A stretch of DNA of 64,000 nucleotides from an uncultured Clostridia bacterium (GTDB lineage Bacteria > Bacillota > Clostridia > TANB77 > CAG-508), in the NCBI GenBank assembly GCA_947585105.1, contig CANPWV010000003.1:221-64220 (forward strand). Direction: 5' to 3'. A program made the position numbers and the translations under genes. The notes beneath the pieces were generated by a model, which saw nothing but the letters and a program-made list of their open reading frames with translations, did not search any database and was not told the origin of the DNA. The stretch's first letter is position 1, and every line of letters starts with the position of its first letter. Below are positions 8,678-48,650 of the stretch, in pieces.

Positions 8678-11600
8678 TCATTTGTAAAACTTCTTTCTTC
8701 TCGCAAATTGAATTATTACATAAATTACTCCCGCAACAATAATTAGACTTGGAATTACTATTAATAAAGTATTTATTTGTCTATTTACCTCATTATTATG
8801 AGTAATTTGTAATTGTGTTAAACCAGTTGGTGGTGAGAATGTTATAACTTCTGTGAAGTCAGTATCAGTTTCTGGTTCAGAAATTTGAACAATTGTTAAT
8901 GGAGTCATAGGAACATCAACCTCATCAGGTGGTGTAGATGGTTCGTCAGGATTTGGATTAGTTGTGTTACCAATAAATGATTGTGTTCCAGTATTTCCAG
9001 CCTTTACATAAACCTTTCTACCAGCTGTGTTTGCTACTTTTACAATCTCAGCAAGGTTTTCAATTTCTAATCCTTCAGCATCAGTCTCTGATGTAAGAGT
9101 TCTTGAAGCTTGTAAACTTATAATATACATACTTTCTTCAGGATTTTCTATGATATTAGTAATCTCTGTAGCGTCCGGATGTTCACTATCAATAATAAAA
9201 TCATTTACCTTATTACTTATATTTTTTGTTCCATTTTCAGTTGGCTCTAAGAATTTATAGAAATTCCTATTTATACTAGAGTCTTCGATATTAAACGCTA
9301 AATTGTTATTTACCTTATCATTTTCCTTATCAATGAAATATTTATTGCCATCTGAAATTTTTGTTGGTGTAGTTGTAGTAATGTCTTTCAATAATCCTCT
9401 TGATGCAATTTCATCAAGCGTATAAGTTAAATAAGTTATTTGACCATTTTCATTTGTATTTTCTTCTGGTTTAAATACTAAATCAGTATCAACATAATCA
9501 ATATATTGATCAACTCTTGTCTTAACAACAGCCTCTCTTCCAGACGTTACATTATTATAATAAATATTTCCTAAATAATAACCAACTCTATAATCTCCTT
9601 GAACATTATGAATATTCAAGTAAGTATAAGCCTTTTTAACAGAATCTGATTGATTATAACCGCTACTACTTAAACCACTATTATATATAACACTTTTTCC
9701 GTTACCTGAATCGCTTAATTTACCAGTAAGTATAGAACCGTCTATTTCAGCTCCTCCACTATATAATAACTTATATAAGTAATTGCTTTCATAGTTATAT
9801 GTTCTTGTTTGACCATCTATATAATCTATTATAGTATTTCCGCTTCTATCTCCAGGAGTAACTCTAGAAGGGTCACTTCCATAAGAAACTGATAAATCTA
9901 TACTTGGACTATCTACAATTTTATTTTCTAACCAAGCTGATAAGTGGTCAGTTTCACTATTATTTATAATTCCAATTTGATACTTAACTATAACTGTCAT
10001 ACCTTGAAGTATGTCATTATCAACGTTTGCGTATCTAAATCCTTGGTTACCATTAAATCTGTTCAATAACTGAACTTGACCTGAACCAGTTGATTTTTCG
10101 TAATTTGGAGCTGAATAATGTTCGATTTCATTTCCATTCTTTTTATAATATATATCAAATACTAAATCAATTAATGTATTTCCATCTGAAGTAATTGCTT
10201 TGATTTCAGAAATATCATTCAAAAGTTGAAGTTTTGTAAGTGGTCTTTCAATCAAACCAAAGTCAATATGCTCAATTACATATTGTAATTCTTCTATTGT
10301 ATAAATTCCGTCTTCTCTTATACTTTGCTTAACTCTTCTGCTTTTAGTTACACCTTCACAATTTTCATCATATTCAATATCTACATTAAACGCTCTTGTA
10401 TCAGCAAACATTGCTGTATTTTTAGCAAGTATTTGTAACTCGCTTGAATTTTGACCAGACTTTAATACAGTGTCCATTGGGTATGTTGTTGTTGTAGAAT
10501 ATTCATTTACTTCAAGTCTTCTTACCTCATTATCTTTAGCAAATGATAATACCCTTCCATTAGCAGTTTCACTAAAATCAGAAACATCGTCTACAACGCC
10601 ATTTTCTTCTGATCCTACTTTAACATCAGTATATTTTGTTGATTTAAAGTCTTGACCTGAATATCTGATTGTAGTTCCGTCTGTTGTTACTAATTTATCA
10701 TATTCATCACCATAAATAAATCTTACAACATAAGTTCCAGCGTGAAGAATTGTAGCTCCATCTGGTCCATCGCTTAATCCTCTTCCGCCTAGATAATATT
10801 TACCATCACTGCCAGTTCTGTCCCATAATCCAGTATCTACAAGGTAATCTTGATTACCATCACTTACATATTCATAAAGTTTAGCAATTACATTTTCAGC
10901 CCATTTATCATTTCCGTTTTTAATTCCATCTCCTACTAGCTCGCCATCACTAGAACTATTTTTTTGTTTGTCTATTTCTTCAAACACATTACCTGTAATA
11001 ATTCTATATACTTCTCTACCAGACTTTGGATCACTTCCTGGTGGGTCTCCTCCACCTGGTGGATTTCCTCCATCTCTTAGGACAACTAAAAGTCCTGTCA
11101 TAAATGTATCATCTTCAAAACGTTCTGTATTATTTACATTAGCGTTTCCTGGATTTGAGTTTTTATCAACTAAACCAGCAGGTTTTCCATTTTTGTAGAA
11201 AGAGTAAGCTCCAACCTCGGCGCAATTGTATTTTCCATTTATCAAACTGTCGCCTTCATTATCTACTTGTATAGCTCCACCAGGTTTTACTACTCTATAT
11301 TTAATGTAAATAACTAATTCTCCGTCTTTTTGTAACTCTTGATTTTCCATTCCAGTAATAAAGTTACAATGTCCTGTTGATGGATTACCAAATGATGATC
11401 CATTACTTACTGTTAATTGAGCTCCACTTTCAGTTCCGAGCTTTGCTGAAGTATTAATAACTTCAAGCTCTTCTGAATAGTAATCAACAACTTCTCTTAT
11501 TTTCGAAGTTATTCCATTATCTGATTTATTTTTAATTGTTATTTTATAAGTTATAACAATTTGTAAATCATTATCATCAAGCCAATCTCCACTCTTATAT

Positions 11601-14600
11601 GGATTATTTGCTTTCAATATATTTTGAACATTGACATCTTGGTTACTTGTTCTATATTCATAATCTTCTCTATAAATTCTTAAAACATAAGGTGGTTGTA
11701 AAGTATTATCACTAGCTTTAGTAAATCCGTTTTTTCCTAATTGATTATAATCATAAGTCATCTTAAATCCGTTTACAGCTACTTCAGCTCTAACAACATC
11801 TTTTTCAAGAGACAAGTCAGCTTCAGGTCTTACTTTTAAACCTAAGTTAATGTGTTTCAAATACTCTACACTATCTCCTTGCATTTCAGGATAGAAGAAT
11901 GTAAATGATCTAGATTTTTCGTTTAATACACAACTATCATAATTGTTATAATCCCATTTTGCATAACTCTTTTGTAGTCTTTGTCCTTCTTCTTCATAAT
12001 CCATAGGTTTTTGAGGTGAACTTCCAGTTGTTCCTTGGAAAGCTTTATCATTTGCAATAGTTTCTAGTCTACTATTGAAGTCATCTCTTTTAAATCTACC
12101 ATTATATTTAGATGATGTCTCATCATATTCTTTTGCATCTGAATCGTTCTCAAAATTATTTATCATATTATGAGTTCCATCCAAATTTGTTGGAGTAATA
12201 TTATTTGCGTTACTATCATTTAAAATTCCGTTTAACGCAGCATCTACTGGCTCAAATCGTTCACCATCATAGTTAAATATTATGTAATATCTCAATAAAG
12301 AACTGTCAGCGTAATAATATTGCATTCCCGGTTTAATGTCATAATATGGTGGTGTTTGTGGAGAACCTTGTCCAATATTTTTTCCTTTTCTTACTCTACC
12401 AAAATTAAATTCACCTGTTGAAGTATCAACTTCTTTTGTTACCATTAATTGTTCTTGACCATCTTCTACTTTCCACAATTCAACTTTAATGTGTTTATAT
12501 TGGTCTCTTGCCATTCCACTAATATTTTCATTAGTTCCATCTTTTACATTGTTATTATTCTTATCTAAGAATACAACTCCTTTTACTTCTGGGTCTAAGA
12601 CTCTGACGTAATCGTAGTCTTCTCCTTCGATATTACCACTTCTTATTATTACTTGTCCATCAAAATAGCTACAATTATCATGTAAACAAATAGGAACTGT
12701 ATAAGTCTCCCATATTCCACTCCAAAAATAGTAATATGTATATGTTTGTTCTTTCCAGTTAGCATGATTAATTAAACATTGATTTTGTATACATTCATAT
12801 CTAGCGTTATAAATCTTATTTTCTAGATTTGGTATTCTCATATTTGAAGCTATTACATTAAATCCAAGTTTTATTTCAACTTCTAAGTCTCCACTAGGAC
12901 ATTCTTCACCTAAATCAATACCAATCTTAATATCTGAGCCATTTCCACCATAAGAAGGGTTTTCTTTAATTGTACCAATATTTGTAGTCGCAGAAATTTG
13001 TCCATTATAAGCTAATCCTTCTGTCATATATTCATCTGTACAATACAATCTTATTAAATGTATCTTGTAACAATTATCCATATGATTCTGATAATCATTA
13101 ATAACATTTGAATTCATACAATGATATTCAACAAAGTTTTCCCACCAAAGACTAGATATATTTTCAATTTTTAATTTTACAGTATATTCAATTTGACTTC
13201 CTTGTATTACTTCAGCAGGTCTTGTTTCTTTCCAGTTTTTATCTTTTTCTTTTCTATCACCAACAAAAGAACCGCTTGGAGCACTTGTTACATTACTAAT
13301 CCATTTTTCAATTTTTGTATCTTCTGGAGGTTGTGATGGTGGATTTTCAACTTTAAAGTAATCTGAAGATGGATCTGGCTGTCTAACTTTTGGATTTTCT
13401 TTATCTCCTACCTTTGTTATTATAAATCGAGCTGTATTTTTATATGTTCCACCAATTCCACTTGGAAATCTTGCTGTAATTGTTATAGTAAATTCATCAC
13501 CAGGTCCAAGTGTTATTTCAGAACCACTAGAAGTACTGATACTTTGAATACTTATAAGTGAATCTGGAGTATCTATAAATACACCTGTTACTTCTTTATT
13601 TTCATCTTCATTTTTAAGAGTTACTTTATATGTTATTGTTTTATCTGTAGTACTATCTCCAGCGTCTGCTGGGCTTCCGGCTTTAGTTCCTTCATCCATA
13701 ATAGAACGATCTTCTCCGCTCATATTTCCATTTACAATAGATTCGATATATTTATTAAGTTTTACCTCTACATTTCCTTCTATTTTTACCCATTCCCATG
13801 AATTTATTGGTTCTTCATTTTCTGGTGTAAATGTAGATTCATTTTTCCATTTATCTTCTTCCTCTCCAGGAGTAGTTGTTCCACCTTTTGGGAATTTAGC
13901 TTTTACAGTAATTAAAAGTGTACTCTTTTTAGGAATTGTTAATGTATTTACACTTTCTGTTGATGAATATTGCATTTGAGCTGGGAATGAAGATACATCA
14001 GATCCATTTAATTTCAATACATTAGTTTCTTCGTTTGTATCTTCAGTAGCAAAATCAGTTATTTCTACTCCAGTTATTTCAATAGGAGCCTCAGGTTTAT
14101 CTTTAAACTCTCCATTAATTGAACTACTATTGTCATTTGTAAGTTTTATAGTATATGTTATTTCTCTATCTTCATCATCTGTCTTTAAATCAAATGGTTC
14201 TTCTTTCTTTTGATCCTCTGTCCAAAATTCACGTGAATCTGAATTTTCATTGCCTTGTGAATCATCATTAGGTTCACTCGAATTGTCATCAGAATAGCCA
14301 ATTGCATTTAAAATTGAATTATACCAAAGGTTACATCCTTCACTATTTAAGTGATAACCAGAGCCATCATCATATTGTTCCATTAAAAATCCATTTTGAT
14401 TAATTTGGTCAGTAACATCTACTAATTTTATATTTCCAGAACATAAACCTCTAAGATAGCTATTAAAACTATTTATATATTGATTTTTGGTTTCATAACC
14501 ACCTGTATAATTTTTAGATACGTTAGAAATCTTTAATACATAAATTGTTTTATCTGGATAGCTACTTTGCAATTTATTTAATAATTCTGACATAGTTCCA

Positions 14601-16159
14601 TCTGTCCACTCAGAATGATAATAATTTAATCCAAAGTGAACTATAATTGAGCCAACATCATCTGGTATTGCTAAAGTATCAAATTCATCTAGCAACCATT
14701 GAGGCTTTGTACCACTTTTGGCTTTAGAATATGCTGGATCACCTATTAAATTTTCTATATATTTAATCCAAGAATCACCAATCCAAAATACTTTTTCGCC
14801 ATTTGGAGTACGAGAAATTGAACTATCACCTATAAATTTCTTTAATTCTATTGGTGTTTTTACATTTACGTAATCATGAGACTTTTCATCTTCAAAAGTC
14901 GCAGTATTACGATATTTTCCACCATAAGTTGTTGATGATTTTCCTATTAAAGTTATTTTAAAAGTTTTTGTTTCGCCTGGAGCCAATTCTATATCTTTAC
15001 CAATATCATCTTTATTAGGGCCTTCTATAGTTCCCGTAAAGAACTCTGTATCAAATGCATCTTCAAGTTTTCCAGTAACTTTTTCTTTACCATTATTTGT
15101 TAATGTAATTGTATAATCAACTTTTATATCTCCTTGTGAATTAACAACAACTGGTTTTTCATTTTTTTCTTTTTCAGTCATATTTTCTCTTGAACTTTCT
15201 AAACCAGATATTATATTAAATTCACTTCCATCATTACTTTCAACATTTGTTATGTATTTGTTTATTTCTATATCTTCTTCTTCACCCTCGGCACCCCAAA
15301 AGAAAAATCTTGACTGACAGCCACCATGTCCACTATATATTAAAATCCTTGCTGAACAAGTTTTATCAACATAAGTTCCACGATAATCACTATAATAACC
15401 AGATTTTGGATATGTCCAAGATCCGCCTACAGGAGTATACCTATCAGCATGTTCAGGATGTTCCTCTACATCTTTATTTTTATCTTCTGTTGATATTCCC
15501 TCATGCTTTATACCTTCTTCATCAATATACGTCCACGATACACATGTATTATGATATGTACAATTAACAATTGGATCAGGCTCTACATTTATAGCATCAA
15601 GAACTTCTATATAATTATAACCATGCCATGTATGCTTACTATAATCCCAATCAACAACCAAATCACCATCTACTAAGAAACTATTTATGTCATTTAAGTA
15701 TCCTTTGTAATATAATGTACTAACTGCTGTTGAATATCTATCTCTCCATTTATTAGACTTGTTATCATAAATAAATGTTGCAAATTGAGCTAATTTTTTC
15801 ATTTTTTCATTACTAGAAATTTCAGTTATACTGTTTTCTCCTTGTTGATATGTTGCGCTTCCATCAGTTTTTATATCTAATATTCCTATTAATCTTAATG
15901 CATCCTGACTACCATTTTGATCAGCAGAACCTGCGTGAATACATACTTCATTATCAGGTTCATCATTCTTGTTATAACCCGCACTTTGCATATTGCTTAA
16001 AGTAGCCCAGTCTAACTCTTTTACTTCTTCATAACTTTTATTTGCTAAAGTTACAACAGTAAATCCTGTATCTGAATTTACTTTATAAATTATAAATATT
16101 GATAATAAAAGAAATATAATTGTTAAAGCTAAACAAAAGATTTTTATTTTTTTATTCAT
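8678..16159 (-). CDS. giant cell-surface protein A2 (2493 aa). Order: signal/TM, Cys-containing head, DUF11-like repeats, SGNH module, SdrD-B-like domains, SPPTG anchor
   Basis: uninterrupted 7.5-kb ORF. YTITLTNNGKEKVTG-type DUF11 repeats. The C-terminal ~1400 aa are collinear with the 3184-aa paralog. Confidence 0.85.
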   Translation of the reverse strand: MNKKIKIFCLALTIIFLLLSIFIIYKVNSDTGFTVVTLANKSYEEVKELDWATLSNMQSAGYNKNDEPDNEVCIHAGSADQNGSQDALRLIGILDIKTDGSATYQQGENSITEISSNEKMKKLAQFATFIYDNKSNKWRDRYSTAVSTLYYKGYLNDINSFLVDGDLVVDWDYSKHTWHGYNYIEVLDAINVEPDPIVNCTYHNTCVSWTYIDEEGIKHEGISTEDKNKDVEEHPEHADRYTPVGGSWTYPKSGYYSDYRGTYVDKTCSARILIYSGHGGCQSRFFFWGAEGEEEDIEINKYITNVESNDGSEFNIISGLESSRENMTEKEKNEKPVVVNSQGDIKVDYTITLTNNGKEKVTGKLEDAFDTEFFTGTIEGPNKDDIGKDIELAPGETKTFKITLIGKSSTTYGGKYRNTATFEDEKSHDYVNVKTPIELKKFIGDSSISRTPNGEKVFWIGDSWIKYIENLIGDPAYSKAKSGTKPQWLLDEFDTLAIPDDVGSIIVHFGLNYYHSEWTDGTMSELLNKLQSSYPDKTIYVLKISNVSKNYTGGYETKNQYINSFNSYLRGLCSGNIKLVDVTDQINQNGFLMEQYDDGSGYHLNSEGCNLWYNSILNAIGYSDDNSSEPNDDSQGNENSDSREFWTEDQKKEEPFDLKTDDEDREITYTIKLTNDNSSSINGEFKDKPEAPIEITGVEITDFATEDTNEETNVLKLNGSDVSSFPAQMQYSSTESVNTLTIPKKSTLLITVKAKFPKGGTTTPGEEEDKWKNESTFTPENEEPINSWEWVKIEGNVEVKLNKYIESIVNGNMSGEDRSIMDEGTKAGSPADAGDSTTDKTITYKVTLKNEDENKEVTGVFIDTPDSLISIQSISTSSGSEITLGPGDEFTITITARFPSGIGGTYKNTARFIITKVGDKENPKVRQPDPSSDYFKVENPPSQPPEDTKIEKWISNVTSAPSGSFVGDRKEKDKNWKETRPAEVIQGSQIEYTVKLKIENISSLWWENFVEYHCMNSNVINDYQNHMDNCYKIHLIRLYCTDEYMTEGLAYNGQISATTNIGTIKENPSYGGNGSDIKIGIDLGEECPSGDLEVEIKLGFNVIASNMRIPNLENKIYNARYECIQNQCLINHANWKEQTYTYYYFWSGIWETYTVPICLHDNCSYFDGQVIIRSGNIEGEDYDYVRVLDPEVKGVVFLDKNNNNVKDGTNENISGMARDQYKHIKVELWKVEDGQEQLMVTKEVDTSTGEFNFGRVRKGKNIGQGSPQTPPYYDIKPGMQYYYADSSLLRYYIIFNYDGERFEPVDAALNGILNDSNANNITPTNLDGTHNMINNFENDSDAKEYDETSSKYNGRFKRDDFNSRLETIANDKAFQGTTGSSPQKPMDYEEEGQRLQKSYAKWDYNNYDSCVLNEKSRSFTFFYPEMQGDSVEYLKHINLGLKVRPEADLSLEKDVVRAEVAVNGFKMTYDYNQLGKNGFTKASDNTLQPPYVLRIYREDYEYRTSNQDVNVQNILKANNPYKSGDWLDDNDLQIVITYKITIKNKSDNGITSKIREVVDYYSEELEVINTSAKLGTESGAQLTVSNGSSFGNPSTGHCNFITGMENQELQKDGELVIYIKYRVVKPGGAIQVDNEGDSLINGKYNCAEVGAYSFYKNGKPAGLVDKNSNPGNANVNNTERFEDDTFMTGLLVVLRDGGNPPGGGDPPGSDPKSGREVYRIITGNVFEEIDKQKNSSSDGELVGDGIKNGNDKWAENVIAKLYEYVSDGNQDYLVDTGLWDRTGSDGKYYLGGRGLSDGPDGATILHAGTYVVRFIYGDEYDKLVTTDGTTIRYSGQDFKSTKYTDVKVGSEENGVVDDVSDFSETANGRVLSFAKDNEVRRLEVNEYSTTTTYPMDTVLKSGQNSSELQILAKNTAMFADTRAFNVDIEYDENCEGVTKSRRVKQSIREDGIYTIEELQYVIEHIDFGLIERPLTKLQLLNDISEIKAITSDGNTLIDLVFDIYYKKNGNEIEHYSAPNYEKSTGSGQVQLLNRFNGNQGFRYANVDNDILQGMTVIVKYQIGIINNSETDHLSAWLENKIVDSPSIDLSVSYGSDPSRVTPGDRSGNTIIDYIDGQTRTYNYESNYLYKLLYSGGAEIDGSILTGKLSDSGNGKSVIYNSGLSSSGYNQSDSVKKAYTYLNIHNVQGDYRVGYYLGNIYYNNVTSGREAVVKTRVDQYIDYVDTDLVFKPEENTNENGQITYLTYTLDEIASRGLLKDITTTTPTKISDGNKYFIDKENDKVNNNLAFNIEDSSINRNFYKFLEPTENGTKNISNKVNDFIIDSEHPDATEITNIIENPEESMYIISLQASRTLTSETDAEGLEIENLAEIVKVANTAGRKVYVKAGNTGTQSFIGNTTNPNPDEPSTPPDEVDVPMTPLTIVQISEPETDTDFTEVITFSPPTGLTQLQITHNNEVNRQINTLLIVIPSLIIVAGVIYVIIQFARRKKFYK
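8822..8836 (-). other. SPPTG sorting-signal-like motif followed by TM segment and RRKK tail
   Basis: FSPPTGL...LLIVIPSLIIVAGVIYVIIQFARRKKFYK at the C-terminus. Confidence 0.5.
14295..14800 (-). other. SGNH/GDSL hydrolase-like module inside protein A2
   Basis: block I VFWIGDSW (Ser463), block III HFGLNYY, block V DDGSGYHLN (Asp-x-x-His). Confidence 0.6.
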
Positions 16160-19100: not shown

Positions 19101-20751
19101 ATCATTTAATGTTGCTTCATAATTGTTCATAATTGAACTGTTTATATAAACCGTCTGATTTTTATTTGTTAATATTTGAATTTTTTCTGTTTGATCATCA
19201 TAACTTATAGCTGTAGCAACATCTGGCTCAGTTATTCTCATTGATCTAACTAATTCTTGTCTTCCAACAAAATTAACTTCAACATCTTCAGAATCTTTTC
19301 CTTCCAAAGAATATGTTTTTCTTATTCTATCTTTATTGGTGTATGTCATTTTGAACACATCACTTGAATCAGCTGTTAATCTATCAACATCAATGTCAGT
19401 ATAAAGAACTAATGTTGTTCCTTCGTTTGCTGCTCCAGGAGTATATTCTGATTGTGCACCTGAAAGATTTACCCTTAAAACTTTTTTCCCAAAAGGATTT
19501 GTATTTACGTTCCAATTATCTAATGATAATCCATTTTTATACAAAAGAGAAATTCCTGTGATATCCACACTATTTATTGCTGATGGAAATTCAATACTAA
19601 TAGATGGATTTTCAAACAAATCATATCTTTCTTGATCTGTTTTTAATGTGACATTTATAGCAACTTCGTTCTTTTCTTCAACAGATAGAGAATCTGTATC
19701 TACATCAATAGTCATTCTTGACTCTGTTTCTTCTAGATTTATATTTCCTTCTCCAATATAACTCTTAACTTCTTCACCTTTATGTAAGTCAACATGTGTT
19801 ACTGTGTTAATTGATGAAAACAAACTAATTTGGTTTTTAGTAAATTCAGTTTTATCACTAATTACTTTATCATTTTTGATTGATATATCTCCGTCATTTA
19901 AAATATTAGTAAATTCGAATTTTATTGAGCTTAAAGAGATTGGATATTGAAATACATAATCACCATTTACAACTTGACATTCTTTATTAATAAATCCTAG
20001 AATTTCGCCAGTTGGAAGATATACAGTTATATATCCATCTTCTCCAAGAATGTTATTAAATTCTTCTACAGAAACTCTAGTTTGTATGTAAGATGAATTT
20101 TCTCCTAATTCAACTCTTGTATTTGTTGTTATTAAATTTATTCCATCTTGATCATCTTGAACAGTAAGTGAAGTAATGTTTTTTCCACCTGTAATTGATA
20201 GAGTATCTATCGTATTGTAATTTGTTTTATAGCCTAAGTCAGATGTAGCGTTAGCGTAAAGATAGCCTTTATAGATACTTGAATTTTCAGATGTTACTTG
20301 AATTCCAACTTCTGGTTCAACATAAACCTCTTCTTCGCTTGGATTTTCTTCTGTATTTTGATCTTCTCCACCTACTTCTGTTTCGCCTTCTTGGTTGTCT
20401 TCCGGATTTTCTTCTTCAGGGGGTTGACCTTCTTCTACAGATTCTTCTGGGTTTTGGTTTTCTCCTACTACTTCTTCATCAATTGGATTTTCCTCTGAAT
20501 CTCCATTTGGTTCTTCTGTTTGTTCGTCTGGATTTTCTTCTCCAACTGATATTTCGTCATTTTGGTTGTTTTCTTCTTCGCCACCGAACAGCCACCTCAT
20601 CTGGGTTATATGGTTCAGTTTCTCCTCCTACTACTGTCTCACTAACAGCAATAGCGATTTGAGCAAAGCAAGAAAAATAGCTTTGTAAAACAACGAAAAC
20701 ACATAAAATTGCAATAAGCTTTTTCAAAGTTTTTTTCTTTTTTTCCATCAT
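16175..20751 (-). CDS. cell-surface protein A1 (1524 codons once two CGG sites are bridged). Order: signal peptide, acidic linker, Ig-like/DUF11 repeats, Asn-rich tract, SdrD-B-like domain, NVSTG anchor
   Basis: three ORFs (20557..20751, 17214..20600, 16175..17233) collinear with the intact 1781-aa paralog. 4577 nt minus 2 is a multiple of 3. Confidence 0.8.
16280..16294 (-). other. NVSTG sorting-signal-like motif followed by TM segment and K-rich tail
   Basis: LINVSTGRTVEYIMTILIIIIMISAVAMIIIKIKNTKKIYK. Confidence 0.4.
17219..17222 (-). other. frame-break site TCT CGG A in surface protein A1 (C-terminal part)
   Basis: in-frame CGG 2 codons before the stop of ORF 17214..20600. The +1 frame gives GNDLRPTKTYYISG, matching paralog TKTYKISG. 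Confidence 0.7.
17223..17405 (-). repeat. Asn/Gly/Ser low-complexity tract encoded by imperfect AAT/AAC-rich triplets
   Basis: NNSGISGNSGNNNNNNNGNSGNNGNSGNNNNSQNNNQNNNNQNNNSNVNNNSNNNNNNSGNS. Confidence 0.8.
20583..20586 (-). other. frame-break site GTT CGG T in surface protein A1 (N-terminal part)
   Basis: in-frame CGG in the signal-peptide ORF. The +1 frame continues GGEEENNQNDE, an acidic linker as in the paralog. Confidence 0.65.
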
Positions 20752-42700: not shown

Positions 42701-43312
42701 TTCTACAGCATCGTCTAAACTACCAGTATAAGCTGATGGTTGTCCATTTTCATATATTATTAAAGATGATGTTTCTTGATTTGGTCCCATACCCAAAGCT
42801 TTTTCCATCTTCATTTCAGCGATGATATAAGCTTCTTTTGGTGTAGCAATATGTCTTTCTATTATTTTATAGAAACCTATTGTATAATGTTGATAAGTAG
42901 CTTTATCAAAATCATTTATTGGTTCATCAAGAATTTTATATCTTATTATAGAACCCACTTTATACTCTGGAGTACCTTCTTCGCTATCAAATGATCTTCC
43001 CATGTAGATATCAAAAGCTCCTAAGGCATCTGAGCCAGTTACTCTAAGATCTTTATAATCTTTAATTTCACCTTTTAATTTAGTTCCTTTTTGACAACAT
43101 AAAATATCATAATAATCTATTAAATCTTCGTATGTCAAAAATGTTGGATTTTTTCTCTCTTTTTCTATTGGAGAATAAATCTCAGCTGGAACAAACATAG
43201 CTTTAGCTTTTACAACTAAAAGAGCTGTAAATATAGATAGCATCATAAATAATACTATTAATAATTTTTTATTAAATTGTTTTATTTCGTTTTTGCTTTC
43301 CATATTAAACAC
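33758..43312 (-). CDS. giant cell-surface protein B2 (3184 aa). Order: signal/TM, Cys-containing head, 10 CnaB-like modules, SdrD-B-like and DUF11-like domains, SPPTG anchor
   Basis: uninterrupted 9.6-kb ORF overlapping the upstream gene by 8 nt; C-terminal half collinear with protein A2. Confidence 0.85.
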   Translation of the reverse strand: MFNMESKNEIKQFNKKLLIVLFMMLSIFTALLVVKAKAMFVPAEIYSPIEKERKNPTFLTYEDLIDYYDILCCQKGTKLKGEIKDYKDLRVTGSDALGAFDIYMGRSFDSEEGTPEYKVGSIIRYKILDEPINDFDKATYQHYTIGFYKIIERHIATPKEAYIIAEMKMEKALGMGPNQETSSLIIYENGQPSAYTGSLDDAVEIPLSTGESVYVVNQQYVIDTGSGSYYVSLAKDSNGNPYYVYSTDENGNLMPYEGDFSYKDPQNGEENSAVGASGQNVYYSNNGNLEVGDMVAASSGTVYLVDYSLVVNQNDNYFYAEVEGEYSYIQIAWWTTIAGTCGGTVSPVAPNSLSKEAEAFEDYILEITKKSSIYELQYELQEFAIDEGNGNVTIDSVEAPVIEYEPKFNDDADQNGIINEADEVTVSFNYLTNKYVIGPYSLDYVKEIAEIAGRNRVEFSVISDVTLLSNLGVLEFEKDWNFLFLADQARDLNEDYKYPNPNEVFYIEINYMEDLTEIENFEFEFKYMNAGAVLDIYQGFYKDVTWTAKYIDHTHEERDILGRTYTVFDYRESYLECTSVVPRDSQMLAHGLKGARWYEYTTCEKGFSINSGSITIEKRTFDDQGNFIPVNGTYYFKLFVNGMEFQELAVRTVNGYGTATSIPIVWSDDEGAPSYQVVELGITRNNGPWSGVVNDGQNIVITAENYIEANRGWLRVDKRLLNPTPAMENELFHFQVYVTGRFGYMGGPIMEYTSNNPFVQDFYLRGGQSANFGEFRWYGPAPKYRVVEIIPDGADYELVNGVINNGIGYLRNSNVPVVATATNSPTTNWTVIEVDKRFVSETAPQPGEVFRATLTVTGEFGYNGDQIRTRTETFDVDLDSSNNWKWNSAKIVWRKGNIPSYTISEYENEMPEGTKFVSISDEIRTGLINNFSSTLTPEKTLIIITNDRVNKMTGKLQINKVGETEDLFGKEFQFKVNVTGNFEYKGTKYTKDGSGYEEIVTVKIPEKTTDENEKDSLPIGEWLSDEFTWEESDGAPTYTVEEIEIPIGYSFVSISNGDKTVTSSHSISGELKGTLKKTVNDSPSKVVVTCTNKGNGKNAHIVIIKESENESIDDFIFSFRVTITGTFRYYSATESGEYTQYTNETLVLDARAVCGGEDWVSELITWNEDDPAPRYTVEEISLPANIEFVSISNREKTSSSTKIEGVVSEGTDYNYITAINKPGDKFIDGSIRISKKSSSDLQGRIFKFNLEVTGTFDYAGRHYENETYTLNNIEIEANGNPWVSGVFVWDEDGEAPEYTVTEVVDGFDTEGIKFISISNETEIGEGNSITGNLKLNEPVKIVAINYGKDQPKGSHIEITKEVLNENLKGREFYFNVKVTSTEPFRYHDLEDATKITEYPAGAVVEFNHVIVIADERDWVSGYFEWDGDVAPTYEISEITSEFPNDVFTVSIRKDTEIIVKELDNKSGEDLTITGSLVGDITHIIAVNDCNDEKPVSGKIVIEKKALSEIISGEEFNFTLTIEGKFKYNGKEYRKLEIKDIKITADGPVWTSEEIVWDERDDAPTYTVTEESATFADGVKFVSIRNAHQTNTQPAITGVVEPHFNNWVIAENTFAGYDKGRIQIHKVLLDDNGNQIDGVEFTFKVTVTYSDGTTDEKTVTVTSGGYWRSDWYVWSKKETAPTYEVVEIDNDGYRVEYKQNSGTLEALEDGKTGIVSVVATNYYQNTHQAQIRVNKNLKVNDKVSEDDVSVSFTMLVKVTGKFMYKGTAYNNETLTLKVMVSKDTNWTWLSDTFTWNGDEAPVFAVDEPSSDLPVGWHLVSTQSSSQDNTLPDGGVAVVDVTNEWKYDEELILTMKIGGKVWDDTNRAVGKPEDTRENGVIDDGEAGIENVKVTVYRALVDKSSGKVVGRLDGVFAYDENNLRTRIDPVTYTDGNGNWNFGAISVPAFTEDEFEAYGDSYCVTYDVEFEYDGQTYEPTEFLATAGGNAKSYVGADSSNNMYSDVENRWSTIINSSTSERDKYLNDSMAVDNEGERQAFNNSFSDIQGKDPIDVEGNTTGTTGSGKELNYTSVDSISFFNSDNSRKISTLVTTDEDGMIYDDLKIKACTSNADLTFPFYTQDPNYDKTAWHLRGWDKTITDVFKITYKFEAVYNYCLSINLGLVEREATDLALEKDLTEALVVVNGKALKYRFNSAIDLSDPNNKELLYKQLAVADAQVEYKLGLYKGDYYYRAEVYNGSEAGNQLAGFYNGKFGVNLDVTEMEVYLKYTINVYNQSDTYDVTVGEVADYYDDSFTLIDKQEFRYVQDVNGKEVNDQIVVGEPSSVTYYTSGNQASGTSGVTWTRGQSYSGSDGVTYNKLTTSSLAGRKLATGERASILVTFKVNRDSVDNSGLTDLIRLGDKHNTAEITKFTSYYSSKSTNRWSSPAQISGRVDEDSAPDNINITNYNEKQYYEDDTDSAPIITIGISDENRILNGIVWEDSQTRDIGSGQVVGNGLYNPEEGDKLINDLTVEIYESISIPKGDGSYEEYLFAWPKTMTVNGQTIDIPTVTGGFRQSTVTENGEYSFVNMPAGNYKVRYVYGDKEVFTGNQDSLVVYNGQDYKSTAYQIGFDNDKDGDGYVDNEWHDLSNSSLSDLRVNDARDDEARRLYISAQSEMLTNPNTTLLATADVKDADHTDLFGNYQEAKLTDPVKGSGQYMYSETAKINLGVENTYKIDNSRTENVGGVEIGLIDGKATQTGRDVGTEHITYTVGNIDCGIEERSKTKITLDKQIKQITLMTSDNKVILDAIYDISYTLKDDGSIAATVSLNEEASTNFDHITSLNRNGKNNQGYRYLIVDSEILQGTQIQVKYQFTIFNMSETDRISKDLENLWTMIDTTNIDMNTLQSEAFESALAKVSTHTYKDDTRVYEGKNVGYGTYFGSVYYLGSQGVGVRPDETIVKTKVHQMLDYIDPDVEFTDMNNISRDQSWTTTQIEYLLENKLIDPSTVQILDTDGRVTGKTANDTLADGERYSIISDKLQEYIVGSKNNIVLTMENGESQDTGSNPSFIKFLEPYRLSKNTNRSTGSMTLTVSRFYSSESDANDIDNLAEIVKFENTAGRRDARNIAGNANPYQLDGDEPIGIYAVANNGKEKDASATEVITLSPPTGLSPVESRTTQLIIVVLIAVIMVAVAIVIIKKKVLVRH
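33872..33886 (-). other. SPPTG sorting-signal-like motif followed by TM segment and KKK tail
   Basis: ITLSPPTGLSPVESRTTQLIIVVLIAVIMVAVAIVIIKKKVLVRH. Confidence 0.55.
37785..41485 (-). repeat. array of 10 tandem CnaB/SpaA-like Ig modules (about 120 aa each)
   Basis: each unit starts G-x-(I/L)-x-(I/V)-x-K (GSITIEKR, GWLRVDKR, GKLQINKV, GSIRISKK, GKIVIEKK, GRIQIHKV, AQIRVNKN). Each has an AP(T/S/E)Y-x-V-x-E core and ends (T/A/V)-x-N. Confidence 0.65.
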
Positions 43313-46300
43313 CTCCTTTAATTACTTTTTTGGATTTTATTTTCAGAACCACAATCATTACAGCAATTCCTAATAATACGATTGTTGTAATTATTACTGA
43401 GATATAGATAAATACCTCACCAGTTCCTACTGATAAGTAACTATCAGCTCTAGCAAAATCGTCTTCGTTCTGTGATTTATTTCCAGGTGTAGAATCTAAA
43501 TCAGATACACCATAAATATTATAATCTTCAACGATTTCAGCTGTATTTGATACAGCGCCGAAATTATCATCATTCATTTGTCTTGTAAGAACTAACTTAA
43601 ATGTCTTTGTCTCACCTGGAATAATTTCTACATCTGACAAACTTGTTGTATATAAAATTCCATCTGAACCTGTATACCAATCTTGGTTCATTCCTGAATT
43701 AAACTCCATACCATCTGGAATATAATCAGCTATTTTTTTAGCATAACCTGAAACTTCACCTTCGTTTTTAACTGTTAATGTATATTCAATATAAACACTT
43801 GAACCTTCAACTTGTTTTGAACGAATTTCAGTTTTAGTTAATTTACTATTATCAAAAGTTTTTGTTTCAGTTCCTTTTGAAGTATTTGTTGTTATTTTTG
43901 AAATTCCCATATCTAAGCTTAAGTCAAATTTTAAAGCTTCAATTAAACCAATATCTATATTTGAAACACTGCCATCTTCTATAGTAACTACTCTAGTAAC
44001 AGCACCATTTCTTATAATTCCTTCTTCCTCAATTCTTGTTGTAATAACATCTGAGTTTACATTTTGAGCTACATTTTCTTTTTGATATGTTGTAACAGTA
44101 TATAAAACTGTATCATAATCAAATACTATAATATAATTTCCGTTTTTAACACCTGTAAATGTATATTCACCATTTGAATTTGTAATTGTACTGTCTTTAA
44201 TTACTGTACTATCAGAATCAACTAATGTAGCTTTAATTCCTTTCATTAATTGTTCATCTTCAGTTCTCATACCATCATTGTTTTTATCTAACCAAGCAGT
44301 ACCAGAAATTTTATATGTTTTTGTAATTGATACTGTTCCATCATTTGATGAACTAGCTTGACCAGTAGAATGTTCACCTTGTCCTGAAACTACATTTCCA
44401 GATGATTCTACAATGTGTGTAATCTCATTTGATCTAAGTTCTGAAATATTTGTAGCTGTAACTGTACCATAGTTTGTTACTGAACGTTCTCCTAAACCAT
44501 TTAAGCTTGTAGCTGTAGCTGAAATATTTACTATTAAAGTATCACCAGCAGGAATTGAAACTCCTATTGTAGCTCTATCTTTTTCAGAAACAGCTTTATT
44601 ACCAGCAATTCCCTCTGATACATAAGAAATTGATTTTATGACTAATCCATCTGGAACATAATCGATAAATCTAGCGTTTTGAGCTGTAACTGAACCTTCA
44701 TTTTTAACTGTGAATTGGTAATTTATAGTTTCTCCTTCTTTTACATAAGAATTTGTTGTAGTAGATGTTTGTTTTATAACAAGTGATGGTCTACCCACAA
44801 AATATTCTATATTTCCAGAAGTATATTCTAATGTTCCATCAGCTTTTGTATTAGCTGACATAAATACTTGTTGTTTTGTAACATTTGGATCAATATCTGT
44901 AACTTCTAATTGAAGTTTCAAACTCTTAATATCTAATGAACGAATATCACCAATTTTCCAAGTTACTGTTCTTGTAGCTTCATTATATTCAGCTTTTGTA
45001 ACATCTATAACGTCTGTTCCATTTTCAGCAAAACCTAAAACAGATCCATCCATAAATTTGAAACAATTTGGGATTTTTAATGTAGCAACTGAATTATGAA
45101 GTTCTTTATCAGTTAAGTTTTGAACTCTTATGTATAATTTAGCATCACAGCCTTTGAACATTATATCGTCCATAACTGTAGATTCAATATATACTCTCAT
45201 TTCAGCATGTTCTAATCTAACTGTTTTTTCTTCAGTTTTCAAAGTTGTATCTAAATCTGTAGCTGTTACTAAAGAATAAACATTGATATCTATGTTTTGT
45301 TTTATATCATCATAAAATCTTCCAACACTAACAGTTAATTTAAATTCAGCTGTATCTCCAACTTCTAGAGCTGGTAATCTATATTCAACTTCTGAATTAG
45401 AATTATTAAATGTAACATTATTTTTGTTACTAGCGTTTGAAACAAATTCTGTATGTTCTGGAACTGGAATTGTAACTACTATATTGTTTGCTGTAGTTTT
45501 TCCAGTATTTGTAACTTTTGATGTAATTTCTAATTCTTCATATTCTGTTAATCTATCTTTATTAACTACTGTTTCAAAATCAAATTGTGGACCTTCACCA
45601 GTAATTAAACCAACTAAGTCTGCTTTAGATACATCATCTATATCAGCAACTTCAGTATGATTTGTATAATATGTAGCAAATGTTCCATAAATCTCAACAT
45701 TGTGTTCTAGATTTCCTGGAATTTCATATTCATAAGTAAATCTTAATTTTGAAGCAGGTTGCATTCTATAATCTGAATTTACTGGAACAATTAAGAATGA
45801 TTTTACATTATCAAGAGATTCTAATGAATCTGTCCAACCATTTGAACTATCATTTAAATCTTTTGTAGCTTCTCCATTTTCAGAATAATAATATAAGAAG
45901 TTTTCTTCATTTAAATCAGCTGGAACTAAGTTTGATACCATTCTTCCAGTTATATTAGTTCCTAAATCTTCTCCAGTTGTTATATCTTTAACACCTTCAA
46001 ATGGAACTCTACCTAAAATAGCGACATTTGAAATATCATTTTTTTCGTTATTCATAACAGTTAATTCTGTTTTTATAACTTTTTTATCTGAATAAATTGC
46101 TATTTCATCTTGAACTTTTCCTTGATTTACACTAGTTATAGTTTTGCTTTCATCTTCACTATAACCAGAAATACTGTTTACACTAACTACTCCACTAGGA
46201 GCTGAATATGTAACAGTTGTAACTGAATAACCCATTTCTTGGTTTTCTTCATTATAATTAGTAGAATCATTATTAATATATGATAATTCAAAGTTTCCTT

Positions 46301-48650
46301 CACTAGCTGGAGCAAATAAATCAACTTTAATATTCATATTCAATATAATGTTTGTACCATTTGAAATAATACCTGAACTTATATATTGTTGTTTTCCTGT
46401 TATAGTAACATCAATATATGAATTTCCTTCATTTTCATAAACTTGAACATTACCTAATTCTAAGCCTTCTCCATATACTATGTTAGAATCTGTAACTTCA
46501 ACACTTTCAACATATTCTGGTAATTTAATTTGAAATCTTGAATCACCATAAACATCTGAATTAATTTTATCGTTGTTAAGTTCGATTTTTAATTCTACAT
46601 TACTATTCATAGCAAGAGTAGACAAACTACTTTGTCCTAGTTCTAAGTTTGCAACTGTTTTAGTATCATCTAATTTAACATCTAAACTAGAATTTCCGAC
46701 ATTTACTAAGTCTTCTACATATATATATTTAGCTCTTCCTACTGTATTAATTGTAATTTTATCAAAATTCTTATAATCTTGTTTTTCATAACTTACATCT
46801 GAATAAGCTCTAACTGTAGCAAATATTAAGTTTCCATCATTAATTGGTTTTGAAGTTTCAATTTCAATACTTTTTACTGTATTTTCAAATTTTACTTCAA
46901 TTACTCCATTATCATCTACGCTTGTATCTTTATTAATAGTAAATATTAATTCACCATTATTATAAATATTTACGCTACCTTCTTCTCCAAGGATATTAAT
47001 GAAGTTTTCTCTATTTAATTTTAAAGTTTTATAATATAAATCATTTTGTTCATATATTTCACCTGTTTTTGAAACATAATTATTTCCAAGGTCACTATAA
47101 TATAGACCTTCAACTATATCTTTATAAGAAACGTTAAAGATTAATTTATTATCAATTTCAATTTCATATTTATTTTCATCATTGTTGTAATTCAAATATG
47201 TATAACCTTTTGAAACTGAATTTGTAGTTGTTTCGTTTGTAAATGTAACTATGTTACCTATTTCATCTTTTAAATCTGAAACTACTTCGTTTTCAGAGGT
47301 TAATTTTGTAGTTCCAAATTCATTTAATGTAGAAGTTACTTTTGTAGTAATTTGTCTTTCAGCAATTTCTACATTTTTGTATGTATATGTGATCAAATAA
47401 GTATCAATACCTGATTCACTATAATACATCTCTACTATCGGAGCTGTTTCATCTATCAAGCTATCATTTTCGTTTTGTGTTGAAACAAGTTCTGGTAAAT
47501 TTGATACATTGATAACTATTTTATTATTTTCGCTATCATAAGACCAATTATCATTTCCGAAAACAACTTCATCATTTATCTTTCCAGAAGTTCCAGCTAA
47601 AGATTTTGCAACAACATTAATTGTATCTGGTTTTACACCATCTATTTCTGGAACGCTTATTTCTAAGTTACTATCTTTGATTGGTAATGAGCTGTTATCA
47701 GTAGAACTATCAACATCAACTTGAGTTTGAAGAATTAAACCATTTACACCATCTTGGTTAAATCCTATATACTTAGTAATTTCAGAAGAAGTTTTTACTT
47801 CTCTATCATCTTCCCAAGATAATTTAAGTTCTACAGTTTTTGAAACTTTGATTTCTTCAGCATTATCGTTTATATAAATACCTTCAAACTTAATTTTATT
47901 TGTTTTTGAAATCATAGATTCTTGTACGAATTTTCTGTAATCATAACTAATTGGAAATTCGATTTTCATTTCTGAACCAGAATTTAATTGAACTAATTTC
48001 AATACGTTTGATTCAAAACTTTGAACTTCGTTATTAGATTCTACAAGATTTTCTGTTTCATAGTTTGATGTATTTTCAGTTAATTCTGAATTATCAGTTG
48101 GTTCTTGACCTACCTCTTCTTGATTATCTTGATTTGAATCTTGAATCTCATCTGTTGGATTTTCTTCTGGTAAATCATTTTCACCTATAACAGTTTCATC
48201 TTGATTTACTTCTGGTTCAAGAGCTTCATCACCGCCACCAACAACTGTTTCTGATGTATTTACTTCTACACCATTTCCAGATTCTTTTGATTCCTCTTTT
48301 CGAACTTCGCTATTAATCAAGAAATTCAAATCTTGTCCATCTCCAAATGAGATCTTAGCGTCCTTCAAATAACCACTGTTTTTAACTTTAACAGTAGCTC
48401 CAATTATTAAGTCGTTGTTCTTAACATCTGAGCTAACTGTTTTTAACTTTTTGGAATCTTCGCCGTTTTTGAAATATGAGTCAAACTCTACATTACTACT
48501 ACCGGTATCTCCAGCGTCATCTTGGCTATTACCAAAGATTCCGTCTAAGATAGTAGCAGCATAAGTTTTACCGACTAGCGCAAAATTAGAAAAAGTCATT
48601 GTGAAAATTAAAAACATAGCTATAATCTTCTTTTTCCAGCTTTTCAACAT
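43305..48650 (-). CDS. cell-surface protein B1 (1781 aa). Order: signal peptide, acidic linker, Ig-like/DUF11 repeats, SdrD-B-like domain, SVGTG + TM anchor
   Basis: intact paralog of A1; DUF11-like INYQFTVKNEGSVTAQNARFIDYVPDGLVI; SdrD-B-like ISGTAWLDKNNDGMRTEDE...NGEYTFTGVKNGNYIIVFD. Confidence 0.85.
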   Translation of the reverse strand: MLKSWKKKIIAMFLIFTMTFSNFALVGKTYAATILDGIFGNSQDDAGDTGSSNVEFDSYFKNGEDSKKLKTVSSDVKNNDLIIGATVKVKNSGYLKDAKISFGDGQDLNFLINSEVRKEESKESGNGVEVNTSETVVGGGDEALEPEVNQDETVIGENDLPEENPTDEIQDSNQDNQEEVGQEPTDNSELTENTSNYETENLVESNNEVQSFESNVLKLVQLNSGSEMKIEFPISYDYRKFVQESMISKTNKIKFEGIYINDNAEEIKVSKTVELKLSWEDDREVKTSSEITKYIGFNQDGVNGLILQTQVDVDSSTDNSSLPIKDSNLEISVPEIDGVKPDTINVVAKSLAGTSGKINDEVVFGNDNWSYDSENNKIVINVSNLPELVSTQNENDSLIDETAPIVEMYYSESGIDTYLITYTYKNVEIAERQITTKVTSTLNEFGTTKLTSENEVVSDLKDEIGNIVTFTNETTTNSVSKGYTYLNYNNDENKYEIEIDNKLIFNVSYKDIVEGLYYSDLGNNYVSKTGEIYEQNDLYYKTLKLNRENFINILGEEGSVNIYNNGELIFTINKDTSVDDNGVIEVKFENTVKSIEIETSKPINDGNLIFATVRAYSDVSYEKQDYKNFDKITINTVGRAKYIYVEDLVNVGNSSLDVKLDDTKTVANLELGQSSLSTLAMNSNVELKIELNNDKINSDVYGDSRFQIKLPEYVESVEVTDSNIVYGEGLELGNVQVYENEGNSYIDVTITGKQQYISSGIISNGTNIILNMNIKVDLFAPASEGNFELSYINNDSTNYNEENQEMGYSVTTVTYSAPSGVVSVNSISGYSEDESKTITSVNQGKVQDEIAIYSDKKVIKTELTVMNNEKNDISNVAILGRVPFEGVKDITTGEDLGTNITGRMVSNLVPADLNEENFLYYYSENGEATKDLNDSSNGWTDSLESLDNVKSFLIVPVNSDYRMQPASKLRFTYEYEIPGNLEHNVEIYGTFATYYTNHTEVADIDDVSKADLVGLITGEGPQFDFETVVNKDRLTEYEELEITSKVTNTGKTTANNIVVTIPVPEHTEFVSNASNKNNVTFNNSNSEVEYRLPALEVGDTAEFKLTVSVGRFYDDIKQNIDINVYSLVTATDLDTTLKTEEKTVRLEHAEMRVYIESTVMDDIMFKGCDAKLYIRVQNLTDKELHNSVATLKIPNCFKFMDGSVLGFAENGTDVIDVTKAEYNEATRTVTWKIGDIRSLDIKSLKLQLEVTDIDPNVTKQQVFMSANTKADGTLEYTSGNIEYFVGRPSLVIKQTSTTTNSYVKEGETINYQFTVKNEGSVTAQNARFIDYVPDGLVIKSISYVSEGIAGNKAVSEKDRATIGVSIPAGDTLIVNISATATSLNGLGERSVTNYGTVTATNISELRSNEITHIVESSGNVVSGQGEHSTGQASSSNDGTVSITKTYKISGTAWLDKNNDGMRTEDEQLMKGIKATLVDSDSTVIKDSTITNSNGEYTFTGVKNGNYIIVFDYDTVLYTVTTYQKENVAQNVNSDVITTRIEEEGIIRNGAVTRVVTIEDGSVSNIDIGLIEALKFDLSLDMGISKITTNTSKGTETKTFDNSKLTKTEIRSKQVEGSSVYIEYTLTVKNEGEVSGYAKKIADYIPDGMEFNSGMNQDWYTGSDGILYTTSLSDVEIIPGETKTFKLVLTRQMNDDNFGAVSNTAEIVEDYNIYGVSDLDSTPGNKSQNEDDFARADSYLSVGTGEVFIYISVIITTIVLLGIAVMIVVLKIKSKKVIKGGV
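43419..43433 (-). other. SVGTG motif followed by TM segment and K-rich tail
   Basis: YLSVGTGEVFIYISVIITTIVLLGIAVMIVVLKIKSKK. Confidence 0.35.

Follow-up and report, generated by a model that had tools for sequence, protein, structure and literature searches.

What kind of surface system is encoded by four very large genes in a 64,000-nucleotide (nt) stretch of DNA from an uncultured Clostridia bacterium (assembly GCA_947585105.1, contig CANPWV010000003.1, positions 221 to 64,220 of the forward strand), and do its proteins belong together? The genes form two loci, A and B, each with two genes in the same order. An original prediction, made from the letters of this stretch (the window), described them as paralogous two-gene operons for wall-anchored proteins that act as a functional pair. 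Here, gene 1 refers to the upstream type (A1 and B1) and gene 2 to the downstream type (A2 and B2); all four lie on the minus strand, and positions are numbered over the whole window. On balance, and with moderate confidence, we favour the reading that the window holds two copies, long since diverged, of a bicistronic module specific to a lineage of uncultured gut and rumen Clostridia, whose products are giant, anchored fibrillar surface proteins that work together. A physical partnership of base and fibre is what we infer from the linkage of the two genes. The genes are laid out as follows (aa, amino acids).

43305 to 48650, minus strand: B1, gene 1 of locus B; intact open reading frame (ORF), 1,781 aa
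33758 to 43312, minus strand: B2, gene 2 of locus B; intact ORF, 3,184 aa from a GTG start or 3,181 aa from an ATG start
20557 to 20751, minus strand: A1 piece 1; 64 aa with the signal peptide and the start of the linker, ending at an out-of-frame TGA
17214 to 20600, minus strand: A1 piece 2; 1,128 aa in the +1 frame, with the acidic linker, an Ig-like region and a poly-Asn tract
16175 to 17233, minus strand: A1 piece 3; 352 aa, again in the +1 frame, with SdrD_B, a CLIPPER-like module, NVSTG, a transmembrane (TM) segment and a basic tail
8678 to 16159, minus strand: A2, gene 2 of locus A; intact ORF, 2,493 aa

The ORF lists place all four genes at the positions and on the strand originally given, and the two loci add up to 26,967 nt (42% of the window, where more than 40% had been estimated). 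An N-terminal Sec signal peptide pattern, with a basic n-region followed by a hydrophobic h-region, can be read directly in A1 piece 1, A2, B1 and B2. The first protein of each locus had been put at 1.5-1.8 thousand residues. This holds for B1 and fails for A1, which consists of three ORFs in successive +1 frames and so carries two frameshifts; the earlier reader had silently joined the three frames into one protein of about 1.5 thousand residues and missed them.

The two loci are homologous in both of their genes. In BLASTP alignments, residues 1433-2482 of A2 match residues 2152-3176 of B2 at 28-29% identity (E 2.6e-46 and 6.7e-20), A1 piece 2 matches residues 540-1346 of B1 at 25% identity (E 2e-39), and A1 piece 3 matches the C-terminus of B1 at 38% identity (E 5.6e-70). 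Formal alignment therefore upholds the predicted paralogy for both genes (E 2e-39 to 5.6e-70), and the peptide pairs once quoted to illustrate a collinear C-terminal half of the large proteins are indeed found at collinear positions. A Cys-containing head common to A2 and B2 had also been proposed and has to be dropped: BLAST finds no similarity between the two heads, and a profile of 12 B2-type heads compared with the A2 head gives an hhalign probability of 0.6%. A1 piece 3 is additionally related by BLASTP to the C-terminus of B2. That is, the SdrD_B-CLIPPER-anchor cassettes of the two gene types are alike.

The closest relatives of A1 are the gene-1 proteins of two related loci, L061 and L007 (536 and 483 bits, against at most 226 for all others). 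Downstream of the L061 pair lie comM, dprA and an AI-2E transporter gene, the same neighbours that locus A has in the window. Because of these affinities and this shared position, we conclude that A and B are ancient paralogous subfamilies rather than the result of a recent duplication.

How general is the pairing? We searched GTDB, taking a single genome for each species, with a profile built from the conserved base at the C-terminus of gene 2; this returned 368 stretches that encode relatives, and we examined the best 75 loci. All 75 come from metagenome-assembled genomes (MAGs) of gut or rumen Clostridia, from rabbit, mouse, human, ruminants and chicken, and they include Candidatus Scatovivens. 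A gene-1 homologue lies directly upstream of gene 2 in 70 of the 72 ORFs that had enough upstream sequence, the two exceptions being second halves of split ORFs. A word-indexed protein search returned 24 relatives of B2 and 4 of A2, all from uncultured Clostridia; one B2 record (P0001) is the same protein, 100% identical, with the ATG start (3,181 aa). Each context retrieved for a B2 homologue, from 65% down to 26% identity, has a gene of 1,665-1,799 aa with CLIPPER and SdrD_B domains directly upstream. The reverse also holds, as two of the most distant gene-1 homologues (26% identity) are followed by gene 2 and lie beside spoIIE or mreBCD-PBP2. None of the 112 gene-1 homologues carries a characterised name. 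The predicted two-protein design, with its co-occurring pair, is thus a conserved one, with gene 1 upstream in 70/72 and the reciprocal search in agreement.

The pair also behaves as a unit when it multiplies. At least two copies of it, in the order gene 1-gene 2-gene 1-gene 2, are present in 17 of the 75 loci. The length of gene 1 is nearly constant (median 1,701 aa, interquartile range 1,676-1,739, n=41), whereas that of gene 2 varies widely (median 2,286 aa, interquartile range 1,600-2,743, n=71). Tandem pair duplications can be seen in L087 (930-20000), L027, L044, L045, L065 and L083; the second copy in L087 has its two genes separated by an inserted ORF of 313 aa.

These data bear on a simpler account, in which the genes encode two independent, co-transcribed, sortase-anchored adhesins that arose through ancient duplication of a C-terminal cassette and have no mutual dependence. 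Each protein does have its own signal peptide and anchor signal, the C-terminal cassettes of gene 1 and gene 2 are related as described above, A2 is intact despite a frameshifted A1, and all of the recognisable domains are standard stalk domains. Such an account is hard to square with adjacency, order and coupling that persist in 70 of 72 cases, at identities as low as 25%, with tandem duplicates in which the duplicated unit is always the pair, and with a gene 1 of constant length beside a variable gene 2, which is unexpected for interchangeable adhesins. We regard independent adhesins as possible but rather doubtful, and prefer the module of two proteins that work together.

The coupling itself can be followed at the nucleotide level in locus B, where the two genes meet at a junction and are followed by a hairpin.

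43301 to 43316, minus strand: coupling junction of locus B; GGAGG at 43316-43312, the B1 stop TAA at 43307-43305 and the likely B2 start ATG at 43303-43301
33712 to 33746, minus strand: terminator-like hairpin with a 15-bp stem and a T run, 12 nt past the B2 stop, from a consensus scan

The ribosome-binding site of B2 lies inside B1: the last B1 codons, AAA GGA GGT GTT (K-G-G-V), hold the GGAGG for B2, 8 nt before its ATG. A C-terminal KGGV is conserved in gene 1 across the family, because its codons contain the Shine-Dalgarno sequence of gene 2. An 8-nt overlap of B1 and B2 had been reported, which depends on the GTG start. A 1-nt gap is likelier, since the ATG follows the GGAGG and is also the start in the public record. 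In locus A, the 15-nt gap stands as first described; it carries a GGAGG (16171-16167) and so provides A2 with its own ribosome-binding site. The consensus scan finds no terminator-like hairpin between B1 and B2, and the stop-to-stop ORFs of gene 1 and gene 2 in most of the related loci either overlap or are no more than about 12 nt apart at their boundaries.

In two cases the genes are fused in frame, namely in P0027 (4,240 aa, L007 5991-18713) and in L077 (1-8919). At the P0027 junction, the TG motif and TM segment of gene 1 are followed by a short basic loop and the signal anchor of gene 2, which together form an internal TM hairpin; in L077, too, the anchor helix of gene 1 and the signal anchor of gene 2 are retained as a TM hairpin within the protein. 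Such a hairpin is predicted to leave both large parts outside the cell and would be topologically neutral. Small deletions or errors could also have produced the fusions, which fit a side-by-side insertion of the two proteins and are no proof of interaction.

Locus B also has a fixed place in the genome. The order minC-[pair]-spoIIE-WG-repeat protein-tatD-leucine-rich-repeat (LRR)/dockerin recurs in many species. In one related MAG (L001), MinC is 86%, B1 71% and B2 65% identical to the proteins of the window; in another (L003), the values are 76%, 53% and 44%. Since the identities of the neighbours fall in step with those of the pair, locus B is vertically inherited core content. The original prediction had taken both loci for accessory insertions. 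For locus B this is ruled out by synteny at the minC-[pair]-spoIIE site across many species, and locus A has a counterpart by comM/dprA in L061.

This fixed place, between mreBCD-PBP2-minC and spoIIE, would find an explanation if the proteins formed a core envelope coat that acted like an S-layer or sheath and was linked with cell shape, division or sporulation instead of adhesion. The mre/min and spoIIE synteny is conserved from 65% to about 25% identity, and apparently no sampled genome of the lineage lacks the pair. Synteny alone, however, does not imply function. Moreover, heads that vary (an esterase among them) and repeats that vary in number are typical features of adhesins or enzyme display and not of lattice coats, and Pfam and NCBIfam scans found no SLH, CWB2 or other S-layer anchoring domain. 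A coat is therefore improbable in our view, and we return to the paired fibrillar proteins and to what they are made of.

Gene 1 is essentially all stalk, including unassigned beta-rich modules, and has no recognisable head. B1 begins with the signal peptide and an acidic linker, continues with about 800 aa that have no Pfam match, and ends with stalk domains. These comprise three DUF11/CLIPPER domains at aa 1028-1340 (Pfam 51.5 bits, cut-off 24.6; TIGR01451 53.4 bits) and an SdrD_B domain at aa 1448-1538 (Pfam 49.1 bits, cut-off 29.7), and repeat searches and jackhmmer add further CLIPPER-like modules at aa 48-130 and 1618-1709. DUF11 has been renamed CLIPPER after crystallography identified it as an isopeptide-bonded stalk domain of fibrillar adhesins (PMC12617251). 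A1 piece 3 carries an SdrD_B domain above the Pfam cut-off together with a CLIPPER-like module.

The interruption of A1 deserves a closer look. The fused homologue P0027, which is uninterrupted, is collinear with both large A1 pieces (35% identity). As it runs collinearly across A1 and then A2, A1 was ancestrally one gene. The second frameshift, at about 17,230, lies at the end of the poly-Asn tract, and the same split ORF is found in three other independent metagenome assemblies, whose contigs show 99.9-100% DNA identity over 1.9-3.2 kb. Because it is reproduced in three independently assembled contigs, this frameshift is real in the population, and a pure assembly error is ruled out. The tract itself (17230-17400), which lies just upstream of this frameshift, is rich in AAT and AAC codons and gives a run of about 55 residues, mostly Asn, interspersed with Ser, Gly and Gln.

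Both interrupted A1 frames (20557-20562 and 17214-17219) end in AAA TGA, which reads AAT GAy in the continuing +1 frame. Programmed +1 frameshifting was considered and judged unlikely, since AAA TGA is expected from an out-of-frame Asn-Asp/Glu codon pair; at the first site, read-through would also place a basic RWRRRKQPK in the acidic linker. The shared AAA TGA is probably a hidden-stop coincidence in Asn-Asp-rich linkers. As assembled, A1 gives no exported full-length protein, because its signal peptide is separated from its body. Locus A would appear to be a decaying or partly silenced copy in this genome, since A1 lacks a continuous frame while A2 is intact.

Gene 2, by comparison, is built from a head, variable modules and a conserved C-terminal half, arranged differently in the two loci.

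41420 to 43198, minus strand: B2 head, aa 39-631; L-C-C-Q at aa 71-74, Y-I-Q-I-A-W-W at aa 328-334 and S-Q-x-L-A with Gln586
37823 to 41419, minus strand: ten tandem CnaB-like modules of B2, aa 632-1830; ten domains found by jackhmmer
33761 to 37795, minus strand: conserved C-terminal half of B2, aa 1840-3184; ends with SPPTG (33872-33886), a TM segment and KKKVLVRH
13397 to 15160, minus strand: CLIPPER/DUF11-type repeats of A2, aa 334-432, 660-699 and 835-921, flanking the SGNH module
14336 to 14836, minus strand: SGNH/GDSL hydrolase module of A2, aa 442-608; Pfam Lipase_GDSL_2, 37.5 bits (cut-off 32.9)
8681 to 12613, minus strand: conserved C-terminal half of A2, aa 1183-2493; ends with SPPTG (8822-8836), a TM segment and RRKKFYK

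The middle of B2 consists of ten repeats, as had been foreseen; their CnaB label comes from motifs and weak matches only. In the repeat alignments, E92 and N142 are invariant and K10 is kept in at least 90%, so that the Lys falls in the first strand, the Glu within a Y-x-V-x-E motif and the Asn close to the end. Single repeats give sub-threshold Pfam matches to DUF7601 (1.8e-5), DUF5979 (1e-4) and Cna_B (5.7e-3), and the best PDB match of the repeat profile, a weak one, is the PI-2a backbone pilin of group B Streptococcus (GBS; E 0.012). The full B2 protein has no Pfam match at E<=0.01 and no PDB sequence match. A 2025 survey lists DUF7601, DUF5979 and Cna_B as CnaB-like families with intramolecular isopeptide bonds and Lys/Glu/Asn triads (PMC12617251). 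Judged from their sequence, ten CnaB-like modules are a reasonable assignment.

Conservation of the final 1,345 aa of B2 extends to every member of the family. Here, SdrD-B-like domains alternate with large CLIPPER-like regions; Pfam recognises the SdrD_B/CarboxypepD_reg-like segments alone, and iterated search adds one CLIPPER-like module in A2.

A2 has an unrelated head, and an SGNH module follows it. This module, a predicted esterase, has the catalytic Ser block GDS at aa 461-463 (within W-I-G-D-S-W, aa 459-464) and the block-V His in G-Y-H at aa 601-603 (within G-Y-H-L-N, aa 601-605). The surrounding repeats reach 26.9 bits with TIGR01451 (cut-off 24) and 20.7 bits with Pfam DUF11, below the cut-off of 24.6, and are supported by jackhmmer. 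The earlier domain calls, that is, DUF11 and SdrD_B in gene 1 and SGNH with DUF11-type repeats in A2, are thus borne out. The A2 head lacks the Cys and Gln motifs of the B2 head, and A2 as a whole is nearly an orphan: the word-indexed search of 5.8 billion proteins returned A2 itself and three remote matches.

The B2 head belongs to a wider family. Searched against 1.84 billion cluster representatives, its profile recovers just 152 proteins at E<=1e-3; most of the matches cover the second half of the head, and nearly all of the proteins end in the gene-2 sorting signal. Three sites stand out in this family: the Cys of [LF]-C (90/91), the Q-x-A-W-W motif (91-93/94, its Gln 93/94) and a distal Gln in [SA]-Q-x-L-A (79/82), while neighbouring positions vary. 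Known thioester domains (TEDs) carry, in order, the motifs [YFL]CΦζ, TQXXΦW and ΦQζΦΦ, of which the Cys and Gln are universally conserved (PMC6194298). The motifs of the B2 head match these in order and form, with atypical spacing. An AlphaFold2 (AF2) model of the head (predicted local distance difference test, pLDDT, 70) has three main helices and a beta-hairpin of about 40 residues that bears the distal Gln, and this hairpin is reminiscent, as modelled, of the hairpin of class II TEDs; the Cys and Gln regions have pLDDT <50. The two-stranded hairpin (window 41543-41900, B2 aa 517-608; pLDDT 85-92) carries large Cys- and Trp-rich insertions at its tip in some homologues. TED membership by hidden Markov model or fold was rejected, as Pfam, PDB profile and Foldseek comparisons were all negative, and the motif pattern is what survives. 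We therefore treat a putative thioester in the B2 head as a lead, not a finding.

Taken to its furthest, the same material would describe an obligate two-protein surface organelle, a hallmark of this uncultured gut lineage, in which gene 1, fixed in length, stays in the membrane by its uncleaved C-terminal helix and is paired at export with the wall-linked gene 2, and in which the B2 head is a new, divergent class of TED. The fusions P0027 and L077 are a hint of such pairing at export. We think this combination unlikely; if true, it would make the B2-type head capable of covalent attachment to host or plant-fibre ligands. The more modest reading of two proteins that work together leaves the question of how they would be anchored, for which a further feature is needed.

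43419 to 43433, minus strand: SVGTG motif of B1, directly before the hydrophobic segment and the KSKKVIKGGV tail

The two gene types end in different motifs. At the C-terminus of A2 and B2, SPPTG precedes a short polar stretch, beyond which come a hydrophobic segment and a tail of Lys/Arg. In B2, SPPTG occupies aa 3143-3147 of 3184 and the tail is KKK; in A2 it occupies aa 2442-2446 of 2493 and the tail is RRKK. Over some 90 C-termini, the family motif of gene 2 is [ILF][TS]PPTG, with the variants SEPTG and LPPFG. In A1, NVSTG (16280-16294) comes immediately before the hydrophobic segment and basic tail, and 84 gene-1 C-termini give the family motif [IVL]x[IV][KSGR]TG[EG]. SrtB of Clostridioides difficile cleaves (S/P)PXTG and does not cleave NVQTG in vitro (PMC4155245). 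A SrtB-type substrate has (S/P)PXTG at 17-45 residues from the C-terminus, a TM segment and two or more basic residues in a row (PMC4155245); the A2 motif, at 47-51 residues from the end, is slightly outside this range. Because the SPPTG anatomy corresponds to the type of motif cleaved by SrtB, gene 2 looks like a wall-sorted substrate on the evidence of its C-terminus. The SVGTG and NVSTG motifs of gene 1 do not fit (S/P)PXTG, and gene 1 may be processed by another enzyme or stay membrane-anchored.

Sortase genes are rare around the pair. Among 83 related loci, five have a sortase within 10 kb (78 have none), and all five sortases are below the class C cut-off. Two of them lie directly downstream of gene 2, in L053 (13671-14498) and L056 (13409-14185); these reach the generic TIGR01076 cut-off and no class-specific one, with class C scores of 58.9-70.8 bits against a cut-off of 160. 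Smaller sortases are found within 10 kb of the pair in L051, L059 and L060.

Two different, separately conserved C-terminal motifs in one operon, along with sortase genes next to the pair in a few species, recall a sortase-polymerised, heteromeric pilus-like fibre of the BcpA/BcpB or Spa type, with a gene-1 base joined covalently to a tip or shaft made of gene 2. The top Foldseek matches of the base model point the same way, being the pilins BcpA, GBS 2b and EbpB together with CBM3 (E 2e-4 to 1e-3), but they come from a low-confidence, unreliable model with a pLDDT of 47. A pilus is further opposed by the lack of a sortase in the window and within 10 kb in 78 of 83 loci, by adjacent sortases that fall well under the class C cut-off (58.9-70.8 vs 160 bits), and by subunits that are 5-10 times the size of pilins; no pilin-motif lysine was identified, and no search for the pilin motif was made. 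We consider a polymerised pilus highly improbable.

If the favoured module is as we picture it, both proteins would be exported by Sec and gene 2 would be linked to peptidoglycan by a sortase, while gene 1, a constant stalk of about 1,700 aa that ends in xVKTG and a TM segment, would be either sortase-processed or membrane-anchored. Gene 2 (1,500-3,200 aa) combines an exchangeable head, a variable number of CnaB-like Lys-Glu-Asn modules, a conserved base of 1,050-1,350 aa and the (S/T)PPTG signal. Both proteins would be built from Ig-like domains of the cross-link type. They would be made in fixed proportion and act together; gene 1 would serve as an unvarying partner or base, and gene 2 would be the fibre, holding an adhesive or enzymatic head well away from the cell.

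Several observations pull against this picture. Contact between the two proteins is deduced from operon linkage, which can reflect co-regulation alone. The intact A2 beside a broken A1 argues that gene 2 can dispense with the gene 1 of its locus, or else for a recent break; in addition, an assembly error could account for the first A1 frameshift (about 20,600), for which the search gave no independent record, since housekeeping genes of the same contig are also frameshifted. On the side of anchoring, the gene-1 motif (SVGTG, NVSTG or VKTGE) is not a validated sortase motif, and there is no sortase gene within the 64-kb window. As for the structures, about 900 aa of the conserved base match no Pfam family and have no assignable fold, and an AF2 model of the base from a 10-row alignment is unusable (pLDDT 47). 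In the B2 head, the Cys motif and QxxΦW are about 255 residues apart, compared with about 55 in known TEDs. No Pfam TED match was found in B2, in 12 head homologues (E<=10) or in five remote members, and the B2 head has no PDB profile match and no Foldseek match at E<0.001, with no TED among its Foldseek matches.

Comparison with known systems helps to separate what is familiar from what is new. Fibrillar adhesins of the MSCRAMM type such as SdrD and Cna (PMC12617251) share with these proteins a signal peptide, a functional head at the N-terminus, a stalk of tandem Ig-like CLIPPER, SdrD_B and CnaB-like domains with Lys/Asp-Glu/Asn triads, and, at the C-terminus, a sorting signal that includes a TM segment and a basic tail. 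They differ in that here the proteins come as a strictly conserved, coupled pair at a fixed chromosomal site, gene 1 is headless, gene 2 has a family-specific base of 1,050-1,350 aa, and the motif is (S/T)PPTG and not LPXTG. The plan of B2 (a head, a CnaB-type stalk and a sortase signal) is that of the TIE proteins, among them CpTIE/Cpe0147 of Clostridium perfringens, BaTIE of Bacillus anthracis, and SfbI and Cpa of Streptococcus pyogenes (PMC6194298, PMC4450167), and the [LF]C.., [VI]QxAWW and [SA]QxLA motifs of the B2 head follow the TED order. Unlike the TIE proteins, B2 has a head with no TED match by Pfam, PDB profile or Foldseek, and the A2 head is devoid of the motifs.

The SrtB substrates of C. 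difficile (such as CD2831, CD3392 and CbpA; PMC4155245) resemble A2 and B2 in SPPTG, hydrophobic segment and basic residues, and the NVSTG of gene 1 resembles the NVQTG of CbpA. The proteins described here are an order of magnitude larger, and the anchoring of gene 1 may differ, as NVQTG is uncleaved in vitro. Sortase pili (BcpA/BcpB, SpaABC, RrgABC) have in common with the module an operon of surface subunits with different sorting motifs and CnaA/CnaB-type domains, in which the pili carry intramolecular isopeptide bonds. In contrast, the loci studied here have no dedicated class C sortase, and their subunits reach 1,700-3,200 aa.

The components are therefore known, as isopeptide-stabilised fibrillar adhesins and possibly thioester adhesins. 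What is new is the obligatory, coupled pairing of a constant headless stalk with a modular fibre, the family-specific base, the fixed location and the restriction to an uncultured gut lineage. This is an advance in organisation and distribution, not in principle, since the building blocks are known. The lineage comprises common uncultured gut bacteria of animals and humans and, to our knowledge, nothing is known of their surfaces. Making up 42% of the window, with the pair in nearly all examined relatives and often duplicated, the module is likely the main interface of these bacteria with host, feed particles or other microbes. It offers a target for metaproteomics and for recombinant isopeptide, and possibly thioester, chemistry (the SpyTag-type toolbox), and it frames the question of how two giant proteins might co-assemble on a Gram-positive wall.

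Some features of the neighbourhood complete the description. The housekeeping genes for PBP2 (50354-52547) and comM (6069-7685) are split by frameshifts in the window. PBP2 breaks at about residue 329, and in the related MAG L001 it is split elsewhere, at about residue 270; comM falls into two ORFs, between which a portion of the Mg-chelatase domain is absent. These splits are either assembly errors or gene decay in the lineage. A HicB-like antitoxin gene (21063-21524) lies directly upstream of locus A. Finally, a 1,116-aa LRR protein with a C-terminal type I dockerin is encoded at 24621-27971; its gene is syntenic downstream of tatD in many relatives and hints at cohesin-dockerin surface assemblies in this lineage.

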